Assembly (NCBI GenBank): GCA_964016885.1
Contig: CAXHJY010001166.1
Span: forward strand, 1 to 62,737
Direction of reading: 5' to 3'
DNA from: Eledone cirrhosa
Taxonomy: Eukaryota
DNA length: 62,737 bases
This document shows, in pieces, positions 3,283 to 61,362 of this stretch; the first letter of the stretch is position 1, and each line of letters begins with the position of its first letter. The translations under genes and the position numbers were made by a program. A model generated the notes under the pieces. The model made no database searches, had not been told where the DNA came from, and saw only the letters and a list, made by a program, of their open reading frames with translations.

Positions 3283-3490
3283 GTGAAGGCGTGTGGCTGA
3301 GTGGTTAGAGAATTGGATTCGCAATCGTGAGGTTGTGAGTTCGATTCCTGGACCAGGCGATGCGTTATGTCCTTGAGCAAGACACTTTATTTCACGCTGC
3401 TCCTTCTACCTGGAGTTGCGACCGATAGATAGTATTAGCAATTGGAAAGACCAATGGGAACATTGTTTCCTCGGTCCGATTTGCCGAAAG
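3283..3490 (+). mobile_element. tRNA-derived CORE-like SINE with composite 3' tail
   Basis: A box tggctgagtgg, B box gttcgattcc, CORE-like tgtccttgagcaagacactt, then tail tacctggagttgcgaccgatagatag. Confidence 0.8.
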
Positions 3491-3509
3491 TCAATTCGAT
3501 AGAAAAAAA

Positions 3510-5352
<1,843 letters not shown>

Positions 5353-5890: not shown

Positions 5891-5956
5891 TATTTCATTA
5901 TATATATTTCAGGGATATCATATTAACAATATGCTATGCCTTCCTCAGACAAAATA
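5891..5956 (-). ncRNA. Minimal type I hammerhead motif (family B, left arm)
   Basis: Reverse complement of 6091-6156. Confidence 0.75.
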
Positions 5957-6090
5957 CAATATAAACAGTTTCATAGATAAATAGATTTGACATACCGTAC
6001 AACATCGACTTGTATTTGAAAAGCTTTTCAAATACAAGTCGATGTTGTACGGTATGTCAAATCTATTTATCTATGAAACTGTTTATATTG

Positions 6091-6156
6091 TATTTTGTCT
6101 GAGGAAGGCATAGCATATTGTTAATATGATATCCCTGAAATATATATAATGAAATA
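6091..6156 (+). ncRNA. Minimal type I hammerhead motif (family B)
   Basis: tattttgt-CTGAGGA-agg..catatt/aatatg..cct-GAAA-TATATA-TA-atgaaata. Confidence 0.75.
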
Positions 6157-10894: not shown

Positions 10895-10961
10895 TATATT
10901 TTATTATACATATTTCAAAGGTACAATGGTGTTTCAGTACGTTTTCATCAGATAAAATATA
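10895..10961 (-). ncRNA. Minimal type I hammerhead motif (family C, left arm)
   Basis: Reverse complement of 11065-11131. Confidence 0.75.
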
Positions 10962-11064
10962 AGAGATTGGTTATACGACATACCCCTAAGGTCTTGAACC
11001 TTCAAGTACCACTACAGGGATTGAAGGATCAAGACATTAGGAGTATGTCGTATAACCAATCTCG

Positions 11065-11131
11065 TATATTTTATCTGATGAAAACGTACTGAAACACCAT
11101 TGTACCTTTGAAATATGTATAATAAAATATA
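11065..11131 (+). ncRNA. Minimal type I hammerhead motif (family C)
   Basis: 10-bp stem I tatattttat/ataaaatata; CTGATGA 11075-11081; stem II aaa.gtac/gtac.ttt; GAAA 11110-11113; TATGTA; TA. Confidence 0.8.
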
Positions 11132-12082: not shown

Positions 12083-12423
12083 AATGGGTATAGCTTTCAT
12101 TATGTAAATATCTCCCAATTTTGCCTCATTTCTTCCCATTTCTTCATGGTATTCCCCGTTTGGGTTTTTAGAGGTTGGAAGGTCTGCACTGTGGACGCCA
12201 CGAGACTGAAAGATTAAGATTGCTTCTCAATCATAAGGTCTAGATTTCGAACCCAATCCGTGGCATATTAGGCAAGTGTTTTCATACACTTAACGATACA
12301 ATCGCCCTGTATATCAGGAAACAAAATGTTGCTAATCTTTCCTGTTCTGTGCTTGGTCACCTGTTTCTTCCTAGTAGTTGTGGTTAAGCTGTTTTAAATA
12401 TCCCTGTATGCCCCTGTCTTAAT

Positions 12424-12610
12424 AATTGTTTCTACTTTTGGCACAAGGCCAGCAATTACCCAGTACATTACTGGTACTTTATTTTATCGACCCCGTAAGG
12501 ATGAAAGGCAAAGTTAACCTCAGCGGGATTTGAACTCAGACCGTAAAGGGAGGTAACTATGCTGGAAAGCATGGCGTCCGACCCTCTACCGATACTGCCA
12601 ATTCACCGCC
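12424..12610 (-). mobile_element. Meta-like SINE
   Basis: Family match; degenerate TSD cctgtcttaataat / cctgtccaaataat. Confidence 0.85.
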
Positions 12611-12711
12611 ACCTGTCCAAATAATGCGAGCCAGTCTCTCTATGGTTCCAGCAGACAGCGTTCCGAATATGTTAACCCGTTGGTTATCAATGGAGATGCT
12701 CTGAAGGAGTC

Positions 12712-13060
12712 AGTCCATCTTGCCTGGCTCGTACATAAGGGTGGGCATCTCCGTCTTGACCCGATCGCAGGTAGAAATGAAATGTTTCAAGTACCCATCG
12801 TACCAGATTTTTCCACCACTATAGCTGTCACAAAAAGCCAGTCCACTTCACCGAGCTCGTTCTTGGTGGATGGCCATTTCTGTCCCGACCTGATCGTAGA
12901 AAGACATGAAAAGTTTAAAGGACACATCATACCATATATCTTCACCACTATAGTTTCGACCAAAGGCCAACCCACTTCGCCGAGCTGGTTGTAGCTGGAT
13001 GGCCTTCTCAGTCCCGACCCAATCACAGTAAGAAATGAGGTATTTAGGAGACCCGATACT
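12712..13060. repeat. Degenerate 129-bp tandem repeat (~2.7 units)
   Basis: gacc anchors at 12758, 12887 and 13016, exactly 129 bp apart. Confidence 0.7.
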
Positions 13061-13500
13061 TTGACACCGTGTATGTGTTATACATTAATATACCATTCAC
13101 ATTTATCGTCTGCTCAACCGAAAATGAAAGAATTTCACGATTAAAATTGATATAAAAACTAGAAAACGTATATTCGGAAATAATTTTACAGAATTTTTCG
13201 GTATATATTAAATTAATTCTTTCTAAATGGACGTAAATTAAATGGAGAGATACAGCATATATTAATGGCTTTTGTTTTAGTTTTTTTTTTTACGATAATG
13301 ATTGCTCAACTTTGTTCTAAGTTTTGGCTATATTGATTTTCGTTAACATTGATGATGATGTGGTTGTTGTTGTAGTTACTGTTATTTTCTATGATCACCT
13401 CCTCGTCTGACACCACCTCTTACTCTTTCTTCATCACCTCATCCTCGTTATTATTTTCATTATCATTAATATCATTAATATCATTATTATTATCATTATT

Positions 13501-14304
13501 TGGCAGTACCAGTAGGGGGTCGGACGCCATGCTTTTCAGCATTGAGTTACGTCCCTTTATGTTCTGAGTTCAAATCCCGCCGAGGTTAACTTTGTCTTCC
13601 ATCCTCACGGGGTCGATAAAATAAAGTACCAGTAATGCACTGGGGTAATTGCTGGCCTTGTGCCAAAAGTAGAAACAATTATTATTATTATTAATGGTGG
13701 TAGATTGGCAGCATCGGTACAGCGTCCGACAACGTGCTTCGTGGCATAAAGTTACGACCCTTTACATTCTGAATTCAAATCTAGCCGAGGTTAGCTTTGC
13801 CTTTCATCCTTACGGGGTCGATAAAATAAAGTACCAGTCACGCACTGGGGTCGATTTAATCGACTTTCCTCTCCCTTAGAATTGCTGATCTTGTGACTAT
13901 AGTAGAAATAATTGTTTCTATTCTAAAATAGGCACAGCGCCAGCAATTACCCAGTACATTACTGGTACTTTATTTTATCGACCCCGTAAGGATGAAAGGC
14001 AAAGTTAACCTCGGCGGGATTTAAACTCAAATCATAAAGGGACGTAACGCTTCGAAGCATGGTGTCCGACTCTCTACCGATAGTGCCAATCAACCGCCCA
14101 TTATATTAGACTATAAAGGGCGGTGGATTGGCAGTATTGGTAGAGGGTCGGACGCCATATTTGACGTATAGAGTTACGACCCTTGCCATTCTGAGTTCAA
14201 ATTCCGCCGAGGTTAACTTTGCCTTTCATCCTTACGGGGTCGATAAAATAAAGTACCAGTAATGCACTGGGTAATTGCTGGCCTTGTGCCAAACGTAGAA
14301 ACAA
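13501..14304. mobile_element. Cluster of four Meta-like SINEs (+13501-13680, +13696-13910, -13911-14099, +14118-14304)
   Basis: Family matches; nested TSDs. Confidence 0.85.
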
Positions 14305-14610
14305 TTATATTAGACTATAGTAGAAATAATAATTATTATCGTCATCATCGCAGTTATCGTTGTTGATGTTGTTGTTATTGTTGTTGCATGATCCAAGGTA
14401 TTGAAATCTTGTTTAAACAATAACAATTCTCTGTGACGACAACAAAGTAAAAATCTAGCAACGAGCATTTACATAAAAACAAATGGAAATGTAAAATCAA
14501 ACTGATTCTCTCCAAATGAATATTGATTTTCCATACACACCTTTCTCTCTCTCTCTCCTTATATATATATATACACACATATATACATATACACATATAT
14601 ACATATACAC

Positions 14611-20707: not shown

Positions 20708-20710
<3 letters not shown>

Positions 20711-20951
20711 CGGAGGAAATGTGGTAAGGAACCAGATGGACCATAACGCACCAGTAGAGTCCAGAAATAGCCGTCGAAACAGCTTGAGCTCTGCCGTCGG
20801 TGTCATACTTTTTCCTATCTATATATATATATATATATATATATATAACGGAGGAAATGTGGTAAGGAACCAGATGGACCATAACGCACCAGTAGAGTCC
20901 AGAAATAGCCGTCGAAACAGCTTGAGCTCTGCCGTCGGTGTCATACTTTTT

Positions 20952-20956
<5 letters not shown>
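20708..20956. mobile_element. Two tandem internally deleted family-X elements
   Basis: Identical ~110-bp units separated by (TA)n. Confidence 0.75.
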
Positions 20957-31267: not shown

Positions 31268-31270
<3 letters not shown>

Positions 31271-31366
31271 CGAAGGAAATGTGGTAAGGAACCAGGTGGA
31301 CCATAACGCACCAAAGTACTCAATACTTAGGGTAGTAGAGTGGGTAATAGGAACAAGTAAGACCCC
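31268..31366 (-). mobile_element. Family-X element truncated at the predicted ribozyme cleavage site
   Basis: Homology to 61169-61266 stops after gacccc. Confidence 0.7.
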
Positions 31367-31946
31367 TTCTTTTTTCACAGGTTAGTAGTAAATCTGTGAT
31401 GGCAAATTGGTGGGGGAAGGGGTAGCTAAACCTGCCGGTAGGAGAACAATAGGTAATTTTCCGAAAGTTAAAATGTTGCTGCTCTCACCCGCTGATCTCG
31501 TTTCAATCAACAAAGTCACGGGGTGTGCAAAGTTTCAGCTCAATTGGACAACTGTTAGGCGACCCTCAAATGCCTTGAAGTTGGAACATACTAGACACAA
31601 TGATTAAGTCTGTTCAAAAGCGGTATACTGTTCCCTATGTCGACCATTTTCTTTTTTCTTCTTAGAGAAATTTAAAAAATAAGGGGCCACCACTCTCTAC
31701 CTAACCTTTCGTAACTGTACTCCTTGTTGTTGTTGTTTACTTTTCCAATGTGTGTGTGTATTAGAGGAGCTCCGATTTCAGAGTCAGGATCGAACATTAA
31801 TCGATCGTTCCTCGAGCTGATCGACAGTGAAACATATGTAATATTATTAAATATGTATATAATGCAACACTGATTCTTTGTTCACTTTTAACATTATTAT
31901 ATATACATATATGTGTGTGTATATGTATTTATTTATGTATATTATA

Positions 31947-32669: not shown

Positions 32670-32672
<3 letters not shown>

Positions 32673-32760
32673 CGAAGGAAAAGTGGTAAGGAACCAGGTG
32701 GACCATAACGCAGTCCAGAATTAGCCGTCGAAACGGCTTGAGCTCAGCCGTCGTTCCTAT
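32670..32760. mobile_element. Internally deleted family-X element
   Basis: Tail fused directly to gtccagaattagccgtcgaaacggc. Confidence 0.7.
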
Positions 32761-32930
32761 ATATATATATAAATATATTTTTTTTTATTTTATAGAAGGA
32801 GCTTCTACAGGATGAATGAAACAGTACTAGTCCTGTAGAAGCTCCTTCTATAAAATAAAAAAAATTTACTCTGCCATGTATTGAGTACCTTACTTACTGT
32901 GGTTATCCCCGACTCAACCCGGGACCTACG

Positions 32931-35045: not shown

Positions 35046-35243
35046 ATAGGAAAAAGTATGACCTCGACGGTAAAGCTCGAGCCGTTTCGACGGCTATTTT
35101 TGGACTACAGAAATAGCCGTCGAAACGGCTTGAGCTCTGCCGTCGGGGTCATACTTTTTCCTATTACTCACTCTACTACCCTAAGTATTGAGTACTCTGG
35201 TGCGTTATGGTCCACATGGTTCCTTACCACAACTCCTTCGTTA
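35046..35243 (+). mobile_element. Family-X fold-back element
   Basis: Palindrome 35046-35164 plus tail, then (TA)n. Confidence 0.75.
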
Positions 35244-35562: not shown

Positions 35563-36405
35563 ATAAGAACAGATTACATAGATTGGTTGTATTCTAATTT
35601 CACAATCCGGACATAGATTTGTAGAGACTTCAATTAAAACGCCAACAGTCTGTAAAACGTTAAACTAGATTAAATATTATTATCTGTAATAACGAAATAC
35701 CATATTGATACACCAATATTGGGAGCGGGGATTACGTAAGCGATTTTCTTTCCTATTTCAAGGAGATATGCATATCAAGGAATCTAGCTTGATTATTATT
35801 TAGTTTACAAAGTTGTCTATTCTGTTAAATATGATTTAACTTGGTCCATTTGAAAGCTAGCGGGAGATCGACGACGATAACCTAATACCTAATCTAAATA
35901 TCTCTCTATATATATATACACACACATATATATATACACATATACACACATATATATACAGAGAGAGAGAAAGCAGGTTTGTTTATAGGCAGCGAGCGAA
36001 GTTTGAAAATAGGCAGTTACATGTGCTTACGCCGTATATATATATATATAGCTTTCGACAGCTAGATCCATGAGGGTCCTGCCTATTTCCCACTCTAATA
36101 CCCTTAGTATTGAGTACTCATGTGCGTTATGGTGCACTTAGGATCATGCAACACCCTCTTTGTTCCGAAGGAAACAATTCTAGTCCTGTAGAAGCCATTT
36201 CTATATTAAATAGAGAGAGAGAGAGAGAAGTAGTAACAACAGTTACTTCACCATACCGAGAACAATTGTTTCACCTTCAGCTAAAGATTCGCTAAAGTGA
36301 AACAATTGTTCTCGGTATGGTGACCTAACTGGTGTGTTACTACTTCTACCAAACTCGTCCCATGGACTGAGCGCTCTACCACTATGGATATTACCTTCCA
36401 GTGTT

Positions 36406-36452
<47 letters not shown>

Positions 36453-36642
36453 ATAGATTTTGAGTTTATGTTGGTTGTATACCAACACCTCAGTATGCAG
36501 GCTGGAGCACTCGACGAAGTGCCCAGGTTGGTTTGGTTACTCCTGAGTAGTGTAAAATAAAGTTAAATAAAAGTCAATTGATTAAAATTTAGCTTCGTTT
36601 ATTACTGCTATATATATTTCAGTGACAGCCATACTAATTCAA

Positions 36643-36697
36643 ACTACCTGAAGAGGTCACAGCCAAAGATGGCTGTCACTGAAATATATATAGCAGT
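36643..36697 (+). ncRNA. Minimal hammerhead motif (family E) inside inverted repeat 36552-36750
   Basis: actac-CTGAAGA-ggt.acagcca/tggctgt.act-GAAA-TATATA-TA-gcagt, with one stem I mismatch. Confidence 0.7.
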
Positions 36698-37232
36698 AAT
36701 AAACGAAGCTAAATTTTAATCATTTGACTTTTATTTAACTTTATTTTATATATATATATATATTATATATATATATATATATATATCCCCACCACCCACT
36801 CTCACATATGCTTATATATATATATATATTGTTTAAACGGAATGAAAAACGAAGAGGATGTTGGCGTGCTTCGAATTAACAATTGAAAGGATCCTAACAT
36901 AAATATTTCATATCGCACACAATTCAGTCTTCTAATAGTTTTAGAAGTGGAAGGATCGCTAATTTCTCAACAACTACTCAGAAGCAGAGAACCATATTGA
37001 CTTCACTTAATAAGATATTGCGAAACAGTTTTCAAAACTGTCTAGTTGTTACCAGGCTATTGCCCGATATAAGTCTGTTATTTTTCTTAATTTAGTACTT
37101 AAAATTAAGTTTGACAAATCATATTGCTGTAGTTAGTATTTTTTCACCCGAGCTAACCTAGTCCTTACGATTCGAACACATGTATGTTTATATTAGTGTT
37201 CATCTTTCTTGTTTATTCAATTATATATATAC

Positions 37233-44194: not shown

Positions 44195-44265
44195 TATTTT
44201 ATTATGCGCATTTCAAAAACAAATATCATCATGCAATAACATTTGTGTTTTCATCAGATAAAATA
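44195..44265 (-). ncRNA. Minimal hammerhead motif (family A, second copy; element ~44077-44326)
   Basis: 8-bp stem I tattttat/ataaaata, CTGATGA, GAAA-TGCGCA-TA. Confidence 0.8.
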
Positions 44266-44444
44266 GGAAGACATGATATGAAGGTTAAAAAACACTTGTG
44301 AATAGTGCAGTTTTAAATCAACATATGAGAAGTAGTTTTAGATTGATGAGTGATATTGGGAAAAAAAATGTTGAGGGGGGGGGGGGGGGGCTTGGAAAGG
44401 ATGAAAAAGAGGAGGAGTTGAGAGTAAAAAGTGGAGGGGGAGGG

Positions 44445-45995
44445 GAGACTGTGATAGGAAAACTCCAAGATAAGAAGACACCAGGAAGAGACATGATTGT
44501 CGGCTACTGGTACAAACAACTAATATTCTATCGGAGGTATCTTACTGACCTCTACCAACAAGTTCTTAAGGGCGATACACTTATACCAGAATGGTTGACA
44601 TTAGCACAAATGTTACTGGTCCCCAAGAACAAAGACACCCACTTTGCAAAAAAACTACCGACCCATTGCATACCAGAACCTGATGTATAAGATGTATACA
44701 GCCTGCCTGAACCTATTCCTCCAAGATCACTGTGAAAATAATAACATCATCACAGATGAACAAGCAGCTGGAAAGAAAGGGGTTTGGGGATGTGCTGAAC
44801 AACTCCTAATCAACAAAACTGCGTTGTCGGAGGTGCGACAACTTAGGAGGAATATGACTACAGTCTGGCTGGACTACAGGAAAGCTTTCGATTCTGTTCC
44901 CCACTCTTGGATGATAGAGGCCCTCCAACTTGCTAAAGTCCCAGACATTATTGTCAGAGTCATAGAGGCTGTCTTCTTCTTGGGCTACTATCCTAAGGTT
45001 AAAGACAGAGAGGAAGGATTCTATTTTTACTGATAAAATAAAATATTGCAGGGGTATATTTCAGGGGGACAGTCTCTCTGTGATATTGTTCATCTTGTCA
45101 TTAAACCCCTTGTCCTTTCTGCTCAAGAAATGTGAGGGATACATCATTGGCTCACAGGAGGACAGAAATACAAACCTAACCCATAATTTCTTTGTGGACG
45201 ATCTGAAACTATGCCAAGAACATGGATGGGGTGAAGAAAAATCTTGACCGGGTTACAACGTTCTCAAAGGATATAGGAATGGAGTTTGGCCAAGATAAAT
45301 GCTCATACATGACTATAGAGCGGGGAAAAATAACAACCCAATCTAGCAACATTGTCATCAATGGCCTAACTGTTTCACCGATATCAGATGAGGACTGCTA
45401 CAGATACCTGGGGATAGATGAGAACATATCCTATAATGGTATCTGTAATAAAGAACGCGTAACCAGGGAATACTACACCCGATTAAGAAAGATCTGGTCA
45501 TCGGAACTCTCTGCGCAAAACAAAACAGTGGCTCACAATGTGTTTGCTGTGCCTGTCCTAACACCAATGTTTGGAATACTCAATTGGACGATAGACGAAA
45601 TCCGAGCAGTTGATGTTGGAACTCGAAAAATACTGAACAACACCGGAAACTTCCACATCAACAGTGACATAGACCGCCTTTACTTGAAACATAAGCAGGG
45701 AGGCAGAGGCCTAACATCAGTCCAGACGATATTTGAATGTCGCATCATATCTCTCCGACAACATCTACGAACCTCGAAGCGTAGGAGCCCGTTTCTCGAG
45801 CAAGTCTATCTGCATGAAACAGATAAGATCATGAGAGTTGGAAGGAACTCCTTGAGAGATATTCCCTGTGTGATAATCAAAAACTCGCACCCAGGGATGT
45901 CGCTCAGCAGTATCGCAGTGAATCCATGGATGAAAAACTGCATGCCTATCAGCAAAAAAATCTAGCATAGATATGTTGCCAGGAAGCTCCAGAGT
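44445..45995 (+). pseudogene. Frameshifted reverse transcriptase of a Dong/R4-like non-LTR retrotransposon
   Basis: Motifs across frames: LLVPKN, NYRPIA, GVWGCAEQLLINK, WLDYRKAFDSVPHSW, RGIFQGDSLS, FVDDLKL, FSKDIGMEFGQDKC, YRYLGI, IDRLYL..GGRGL. About four frameshifts. Confidence 0.88.
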
Positions 45996-51359: not shown

Positions 51360-51537
51360 CAAAGAGAGTGTGGTAAGAAACCAGGTGGACCATAACGCTC
51401 CAGAGTACTCAATACCTAGGTTAGTAGAGTGGATAATATGAAAAGAGTCAGGACCCCGACGGCTTATTTCCGGCCGTTTCATTCGGATCTAGCCGTCGAA
51501 ACGGCCGGAGCTCAGCCGTCGGGATCCTGACTCTTTT
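51360..51537 (-). mobile_element. Diverged family-X fold-back element
   Basis: Tail homology plus palindrome 51441-51537. Confidence 0.65.
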
Positions 51538-51803: not shown

Positions 51804-51811
<8 letters not shown>

Positions 51812-52105
51812 AAAAAGAGATGAAATCGAAAATGCAACTGGAGTCTTATTTTTTTTTTAAATATATATATTTATTTGGTTCCTTTACCGGTTTCGCAGTT
51901 CTTCTGCTTTTCAAAAGGTGAGTTGAGATGGAGGGTCTGTGGTTTTTCTCACATGTGAGAAAAACTATAGACCCTCCATCTCAACTCACCTTTTGAAAAG
52001 CAGAAGAACTGCGAAACTGGTAAAGGAACCAAATAAATATACATATTTAAAAAAAAAAAAATAAGACTCCAGTTGCATTTTCGATTTCATCTCTTTTTCT
52101 TTATA
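51804..52105. mobile_element. Zero-spacer ~150-bp palindrome carrying variant hammerheads (family G)
   Basis: Centre aca|tgt at 51953/51954; motifs at -51881-51918 and +51989-52026. Confidence 0.75.
51881..51918 (-). ncRNA. Minimal hammerhead motif with U3-A8 core
   Basis: Minus strand: cctt-TTGAAAA-gcag.aagaa.ctgc-GAAA-CCGG-TA-aagg. Confidence 0.65.
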
Positions 52106-53935: not shown

Positions 53936-53940
<5 letters not shown>

Positions 53941-54131
53941 AACGAGTAGGACCCCGACGGCTGAGCTCAAGCCGTTTCGACGGTTAATTCTGGACTGAAT
54001 TAGCCGTCGAGACGGCTTGAGCTCAGCCGTCGGGGTCCTACTCGTTCCTATTAGCAACTCTACTACCCTAAGTATTGAGTACTTTGGTGCGTTATGGTCC
54101 ACCTGGTTCCTTACCACATTTCCTTCGTTAT
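53936..54131 (+). mobile_element. Family-X fold-back element
   Basis: Palindrome 53936-54051 plus tail, (TA)n on both sides. Confidence 0.8.
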
Positions 54132-61168: not shown

Positions 61169-61170
<2 letters not shown>

Positions 61171-61357
61171 CGAAGGAAATGTGGTAAGGAACCAGGTGGA
61201 CCATAACGCACCAAAGTACTCAATACTTGAGGTAGTAGAGTGGGTAATAGGAACCAGTAAGACCCCGACAGCTGAGCTCAAGCCGTTTCGACGGCTAATT
61301 CTGGCCAGAATTAGCCGTCGAAACGACTTGAGCTCAGCTGTCGGGGTCTTACTGGTT

Positions 61358-61362
<5 letters not shown>
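61169..61362 (-). mobile_element. Family-X fold-back element (most intact copy)
   Basis: Palindrome 61247-61362 centred ctgg|ccag at 61304/61305, (TA)n on both sides. Confidence 0.8.

Follow-up and report, generated by a model that had tools for sequence, protein, structure and literature searches.

The stretch of Eledone cirrhosa DNA analysed here as a whole, hereafter the window, is 62,737 nucleotides long (contig CAXHJY010001166.1). At 61169..61362 it contains a complete stub insertion in a (TA)n repeat, of which near-identical copies occur elsewhere in the genome. The stub consists of two arms joined head to head. Arm B (61171..61304, minus strand) was placed by BLAST to a real parent unit, at parent positions 3398-3531, and extends from near the inferred transcription start to an end site, B. 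Arm A (61305..61362, plus strand; parent 3398-3455) ends at site A, which is marked by TTCC and then TATA. The 79 nt between sites A and B form a tail that is present on one arm only (61171..61249, minus strand). According to the sequence and the fold of the parent, arm A carries the 3' half of a hammerhead ribozyme at 61310..61347 (plus strand), in the order stem II 3' arm, GAAA, stem III with a palindromic loop and stem I 3' arm; the predicted ribozyme cut falls after position 61342.

Four palindromes had been reported in the original prediction. All four are present, at 35046-35164, 51441-51537, 53936-54051 and 61247-61362, the mirrored 10-mers quoted for them were found, and their arms do contain the hammerhead 3' half; each lies within or adjoins TA-rich repeats. 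The stub at 35046..35242 belongs to a second subfamily and has arm A at 35046-35107 (minus) and arm B at 35108-35240 (plus), the tailless arm extending further 5'. An older third subfamily is represented at 51369..51537, where arm B (51369-51480, minus) stops at GAAAC and arm A (plus) retains the stem II 3' arm; this copy (51441) is without any central hairpin. A near-identical duplicate of it, together with its flank, lies on another small contig (L280, G000:C747:80515). In the stub at 53936..54129, arm A (53936-54000, minus) reaches the inferred start, and arm B (53997-54127, plus) is shorter at the centre. The tailless arm is thus the longer one in three of the four copies.

Other members of the family in the window are less symmetrical. 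At 20709..20818, about 45 nt of arm B (minus) are followed by arm A (plus) from G-AGTCC, a form resembling the product of L1 twin priming, and 20847..20956 is its tandem duplicate. At 32671..32753 a short arm B (minus) is joined to arm A (plus) from AGTCC, and arm A has an internal deletion. In these three copies arm B amounts to just 40-45 nt. A further arm B (31269..31366, minus) has its 5' end exactly at the predicted ribozyme cut (parent 3436) and is preceded by an upstream piece of the 3' UTR at 31384-31446, while 36082..36137 (plus) is a degraded fragment of the tail region. A scan of the window for CUGANGA gave no match belonging to the palindrome family. Head-to-head palindromes with outward-facing CTGANGA at 1-183, 5933-6114 and 10901-11125 probably represent further families of Penelope-like element (PLE) type. 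The window also holds unrelated palindromes of 70-300 bp among TA repeats (36553-36748, 36226-36347, 51805-52105 and 32787-32856), pieces of a broken non-LTR reverse transcriptase-like ORF at 44289-45965 (plus; motifs YRPIA, VWLDYRKAFDSVPH and YRYLG) adjoined by a CTGATGA motif at 44257 (minus), and a 190-bp repeat of which several copies, in both orientations, cluster at 12420-14321.

The family is abundant in the genome (3.0 Gb, 1,796 contigs searched). Palindromes with exact arms numbered 5,111 and 3,178, far above chance and against 0 for a reversed-pattern control, so that the genome contains at least 8,289 short palindromes. The mirrored 10-mers, which had been described as private to each copy, turned out to be shared. 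The variant of the 61247 copy was present in all 30 of the best genome matches to the 61169 copy, and among 144 junctions the variants of the 61247, 35046 and 53936 copies were identical in both arms at 56, 7 and 6 loci, respectively. The 51441 variant, CCTGACTCTT, was found in at least 12 of 30 loci fetched with a pattern for its subfamily, one of the 12 being the near-identical duplicate of the window copy. Variants that are rare in the same set of 144 junctions (which excludes four junctions without a scored tail, three of the third subfamily and one duplicate) behave differently: mirroring was seen for 0 of 35 that are restricted to one locus and for 1 of 123 that occur at no more than three loci. 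It follows that the mirrored 10-mers distinguish subfamilies and that conversion between arms is rare.

These counts bear on the alternative offered in the original prediction, that the mirror is made after insertion by gene conversion between the arms (or, similarly, by flipping of the spacer). The palindrome centre is the part that differs between copies and often occurs in reverse-complement pairs, as such a process would produce; still, the near absence of mirrored rare variants contradicts it, and differences in arm length of kilobases (see below) are not producible in this way. We regard post-insertion conversion as barely tenable. The mirror arises at insertion, as the original prediction had held.

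The source of the stubs could be identified. One locus (L026) joins a palindrome to the start of an ORF, and a genome search with this piece led to full elements. The parent is a unit of 3,531 bp, arranged in tandem at some loci, with an ORF of 717 amino acids that was intact in 9 of 13 fetched parents. In its sequence, read by eye, a reverse transcriptase (RT) domain (QFDIESYY, YRDDGL) is followed by a C-terminal GIY-YIG endonuclease (EN; VIYQC...AYIG), and there is no N-terminal EN. The RWK motif is present as KRLRWRTFF (RWR, a conservative change), and SDKTGNLY provides DKT in place of DKG. The linker contains CxCx5C (CNCPDRSIC), CCHH is absent, CxxC (CNLC) and CxH (CKH) flank, and a single Cys lies between the equivalents of GIY and YIG. 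Searches of Pfam and of PDB sequences with the 717-aa ORF gave no match; 2,049 full-length relatives, mostly unnamed, have about 40% identity to it. Insertion is into (TA)n, 126 of 148 A ends and 139 of 148 B ends running into such repeats. The motifs match those of the Hydra clade, and the parent may be assigned on this basis to Hydra-clade PLEs. Descent of the family from a PLE with a hammerhead had been correctly predicted.

Three other identities were considered and rejected. A Naiad, suggested for the ORF start, does not agree with the C-terminal EN and the motifs, which point to Hydra. Non-LTR retrozymes are defined by non-coding tandem units, each with a complete hammerhead; here the tandem unit codes for a protein and the stubs hold half a ribozyme. 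Finally, a MITE or another DNA transposon with terminal inverted repeats would not have an unmatched 79-nt tail at one end and a variable centre, nor would its arms range continuously in length up to full copies of the ORF.

The end of the parent unit (the pLTR) folds as a type I hammerhead, with stems I-III in the minimum free energy (MFE) structure of a real parent. The z-score of this MFE is 0.39, so the energy alone is no evidence; the alignment of 11 parents from three subfamilies has 83.5% of cells paired and four pairs changed on both sides. Among five other parents that were folded, L275 and L191 gave no hammerhead and L276 gave stem II only. A parent with a hammerhead, as predicted, thus exists, but its core is YUGANAA (U3-A8) and not the CUGANGA that had been claimed. 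The core has 7,291 matches in the genome; among the 100 listed, A stands at position 8 in all, N7 takes all four bases and C stands at position 3 in about 22, which consequently have a C3/A8 mismatch in the core. The subfamily with this mismatch is abundant and includes the parents L176, L191, L213, L216 and L218. Rfam returned nothing relevant for the parent pLTR and, for the window, only microsatellite-driven miRNA matches among the 150 listed of 761.

The palindromes do not contain a complete core: in both arms the YUGANAA half is missing, and so is the stem II 5' arm of the parent. Nor are they centred on stem II, as had been proposed. The stem II 5' arm of the parent is GNTCGGCTATT and the loop is about 35 nt long, and this combination was kept in 0 of 152 palindrome centres; the left half of the palindrome instead matches the reverse complement of the stem II 3' arm exactly.

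The outer ends of the insertions are fixed. In each insertion one arm ends at site A and the other 79 nt further, at site B. In a script test of 152 junctions the tail was on exactly one arm in 148 and on both arms in none. Among 20 long insertions, selected visually as head-to-head pairs among the 100 parent-core matches listed, 19 had one A and one B end, and the tail was on both arms in 2 of 20 strongly lopsided joints. A small hairpin lies just 3' of each end site, A and B (parent L056:7315-7440).

The inner ends vary, and either arm may be the longer. In 101 short joints not chosen by orientation, the tailless arm was longer in 30, the tail arm in 47, and the arms were equal in 24. This count excludes 37 joints chosen by likeness to the query, nine not scorable by the parent-match test, four without a scored tail and one duplicate, and it includes loci selected for a one-base mismatch between the arms as well as the composite locus L117:5129. 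Among the 20 long insertions, the tailless arm was longer in nine (by up to 2.6 kb) and the tail arm in six, four were equal or unresolved and one was complex; the longer tailless arm contains no template for the tail.

This distribution of lengths is difficult to reconcile with snap-back self-priming, in which a single cDNA folds on itself and serves as template for the second arm. Such a process was proposed in the original prediction, with stem II as the hairpin primer, and is inferred for PLEs in PMC3846280. It predicts arms from the same source, as observed (see below); there is a slight excess of longer tail arms (47 vs. 30, p 0.07), and many centres are short perfect palindromes. However, no copy can exceed its template in length, and yet 30 of 77 asymmetric short joints and 9 of 20 long insertions have the tailless arm as the longer one. 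The stem II 5' arm and loop that would serve as primer are in none of the 152 centres. A self-priming loop is also implausible at 653 joints in which both arms end at the same last base with a gap of only 1-2 nt, and 12 of 49 listed joints at the ribozyme cut are gap-free, which leaves no room for a loop. In addition, an extra G stands on both arms in 2 of 50 listed joints and at two further loci, L128 and L131. On the strength of the longer tailless arms and the loop-free joints we rejected snap-back as a general route and consider it very improbable.

A second alternative is that hairpin DNA is made off the chromosome, is cut by the EN at A on one strand and at B on the other, and is then inserted; "EN-mediated resolution" is the wording of PMC8557442. 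Copying of both arms from the same RNA is accounted for by this route, which also permits the tail on either arm, but the same staggered cut would be needed in both polarities at about equal rates, and the hairpins would need loops of up to 2.6 kb as well as loop-free or double-G joints. Moreover, RT starts at the tail bounds have been directly seen in vitro for another PLE (PMC11167929). This route appears unlikely to us.

The two arms of an insertion share their source. According to the prediction, arms should pair by locus, and at one diagnostic base they do: 8,289 palindromes were matched and 105 mixed, where about 8,060 mixed joints would be expected. The 105 look like point changes and not like chimeras, since at the remaining diagnostic sites the arms agree in most of the loci listed; one or two joints, L078 and the composite L117:5129, do look chimeric between subfamilies. 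A further comparison uses the two positions at which centres are found, the predicted cut and the inferred start. At most 46 joints combine them, 32 of which read through the cut site, whereas about 1,260 would be expected from two RNAs (computed from 184 cut-site joints and an estimated 2,150 start joints). If the arms drew on a local pool of identical RNAs, the agreement in subfamily would be accounted for, but the agreement between cut and start would not. Since mixed joints fall far below the two-RNA expectation, it is likely that one RNA templates both arms. In the 20 strongly lopsided joints the tail arm was the short arm in 14 and the long arm in three, as expected if B follows A. Together with the window copies that have just 40-45 nt of arm B, an outcome known from L1 twin priming, this fits one RNA on which A is copied first and B by displacement.

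The more common centre has a sharp position. The arms extend to the A in TT(A)GTCC or end slightly before it; this +1 position is 58 nt from site A and 137 nt from site B, and many arms fall 1-5 nt short of it. In the 653 joints in which both arms reach +1 and the insert is 1-2 nt, 493 carry a single G:C. Among the 50 listed (inserts in this class, in the cut-site joints and in the mixed joints were counted by eye among the matches listed), single inserts were G/C in 38 of 43, and the two joints mentioned above read CG, i.e., a G on each arm. No G stands at -1 in any of 94 parents. Of 30 extra-G loci, 25 could be resolved and 5 could not; in the 25, the G belonged to the tail arm 13 times and to the tailless arm 12 times. 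A C templated by parents with TCAGTCC (3 of 94) was rejected as the source of the G: 6 of 30 extra-G loci belong to a subfamily in which 50 of 50 parents have TTT-AGTCC, so a templated C is insufficient. Centres reading TGTACA were considered as corrected quasi-palindromes, which was likewise rejected, as they derive from a subfamily whose parent has TTCAGTAC.

The position of TTAGT/TCAGT is constant in three subfamilies whose loops otherwise differ, and we take the motif to resemble the Initiator, TCAKTY. The common centre would correspond to the start of capped transcripts, inside loop II at the A of TTAGT/TCAGT, and the extra G:C is likely to be the copied cap. Against the cap, a C added without template wherever a template ends would likewise appear as G; the cut-site joints are without this G. 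In several folds TTAGT is also paired, as part of an inner hairpin in loop II, and may be conserved for reasons other than a promoter; inspection by eye revealed no evident downstream promoter element. For insertions made by L1, a cap-derived extra G has been described (PMC11702581).

The rarer centre lies at the predicted ribozyme cut. A pattern search revealed 184 palindromes, all of one subfamily, centred on the predicted cut, and only 14 joints centred just upstream, in stem III. Among 49 distinct cut-site loci listed, 45 stop no more than 1 nt from the cut. The single inserts listed here were A/T in nine and G/C in 1 of 10, in contrast to G/C in 38 of 43 at the start joint (p 4e-6). The cut-site palindromes that were fetched (15 matches at 14 loci) each carry a single tail; those of simple structure measure about 112 bp. 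This centre would represent the 5' end left by self-cleavage of the ribozyme at GUC; the cut-site palindromes provide indirect evidence, drawn from genomic sequence, for ribozyme cutting in vivo. Self-cleavage of the parent after H17 is supported, likewise indirectly, by the 184 insertions that end at the predicted cut.

Both centres might have another origin even if the insertions are primed from two ends, namely stalling of the RT at RNA helices or later cruciform deletions. The common centre does lie in the 3' arm of the inner loop II hairpin and the rare one at the base of stem III, and GACCCC/GGGGTC can arise by deletion on 1 nt of microhomology. Such processes nevertheless do not explain why the extra G is specific to one position and missing at the cut site, nor do they explain the peak of 184 vs. 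14 or the stopping of both arms at the same one of two sites, and we find them improbable as the cause of the centres.

Starting from what was observed directly, namely the parent, the fixed ends with one A and one B each, the same-source arms, the freedom of either arm to be longer and the two sharp centres, we consider the palindromes to be the shortest insertions of a PLE, formed when both strands of the cut (TA)n target prime reverse transcription on one RNA. We give this explanation as a whole, including the cap and cut centres, a probability of roughly 0.78. One strand would start at site A on the element RNA and the other 79 nt downstream, at site B. The cDNA from B would displace that from A, both would run off the 5' end of the RNA, and end joining or a template jump would link their 3' ends head to head. 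The position of the centre would then equal the 5' end of the RNA, either the capped start (common) or the ribozyme cut (rarer). The abundance of stubs would follow from RT starts that lie 58 and 137 nt from the cap, close to the 5' end of the mRNA encoding the enzyme itself.

A wider reading, which we put forward tentatively and hold to be possible rather than probable, is that the stubs constitute a fossil map of the 5' ends of germline Penelope RNA, with replication through a viroid-like circle. A promoter inside loop II of the ribozyme would yield a capped mRNA with half a ribozyme and no cutting. Read-through RNA would have the whole U3-A8 ribozyme and would be cut to unit length; the cut RNA, if kept linear, would give the 112-bp duds and, if circularised, long rolled-out tandem arrays. 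The circle has a single locus in its support, a tandem array of four coding units (L056 and L057, G000:C1:437.20-437.21 Mb). Its units 1 and 3 differ from units 2 and 4 at a single base, compared with 41-63 mismatches to other loci. This period-two alternation fits a two-unit circular template, and duplication of a two-unit block explains it equally well.

Much of the architecture has counterparts among known elements. The Hydra clade (PMC8557442) likewise has a single RT-GIY-YIG ORF with RWK (conservatively changed to RWR here), DKT, CxCx5C, CxxC and CxH and no CCHH, a (TA)n target, a hammerhead near the unit end and partial tandems; an inverted 5'-truncated copy and a one-sided tail are both known PLE features. 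The Eledone parent differs from that clade in its unit of 3.5 kb (generally <3 kb) and in its hammerhead, which is not the one listed for Hydra-1_Obim. Its core is U3-A8, whereas the Hydra hammerheads listed in part of the supplement of PMC8557442 all begin with ctga.ga, and its tail measures 79 nt against the 30-40 bp stated there for Naiads and PLEs generally. The sections of that paper drawn on here do not describe thousands of minimal palindromes with mapped centres.

The closest biochemical parallel is the Poseidon element PAc, which in vitro nicks and extends both strands with two internal RT starts bounding the tail (PMC11167929). PAc shares with the Eledone element the AT-rich target, the two RT starts at the tail bounds and a predicted dimer. 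Its starts lie inside the ORF, while sites A and B both lie upstream of it. The two starts of PAc are used without strand preference; A is strictly paired with B here, and this pairing is left unexplained by the PAc results reported there. For PAc, the same study found no RNA reads ending at the ribozyme cut, in contrast to the 184 insertions described above. L1 twin priming (PMC11702581) is similar in that the second DNA end primes internally on the same RNA to give a head-to-head joint, and in the extra G from the cap at full 5' ends. The L1 cDNAs, however, cover adjacent stretches with a loss or overlap of 1-10 bp, whereas the Eledone arms usually copy the same 5' stretch from fixed sites, which gives a palindrome.

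Palindromes at head-to-head inverted junctions and an Inr-like motif in the pLTR are also reported for other PLEs (PMC3846280), where self-priming on an antisense template is inferred; the joints analysed here point to a sense RNA copied twice. The hammerhead resembles that of the Schistosoma PLE Cercyon (PMC4209133) in the U3-A8 core, the G10.1-C11.1 pair and the palindromic loop 3. It is unlike the Cercyon hammerhead in its stem III of 5 bp and its loop II of about 35 nt with the inferred start, and the Eledone genomic copies, unlike those of Cercyon, end at the predicted cut. The sections of PMC9719517 and PMC13282606 drawn on here add nothing on the mechanism. In the portions of the literature covered, the architecture, the U3-A8 core and the two starts have already been published. 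In a search of the literature with subscription papers and bioRxiv supplements outside its scope, PLE palindrome centres mapped to a cap or to a ribozyme cut were not found; new relative to the literature found are the link of the centre to the cap, the link of the centre to the cut and the mixed-joint test.

How PLEs form inverted copies and what role their hammerheads have are stated as open in the portions of PMC8557442 and PMC11167929 used here. PLEs are the closest relatives of telomerase, and the thousands of young joints in the genome of E. cirrhosa allow models of insertion to be separated by counting. These joints argue against the published self-priming and for a sense RNA that is read twice from two fixed sites. 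They also indicate that stubs of this kind can be misfiled as hairpin DNA transposons. The intact ORFs, together with exact predicted coordinates for the start, the cut and sites A and B, make each step testable. If the wider reading is true, an autonomous coding retrotransposon would replicate via a viroid-like circle and be primed from both ends of a break.
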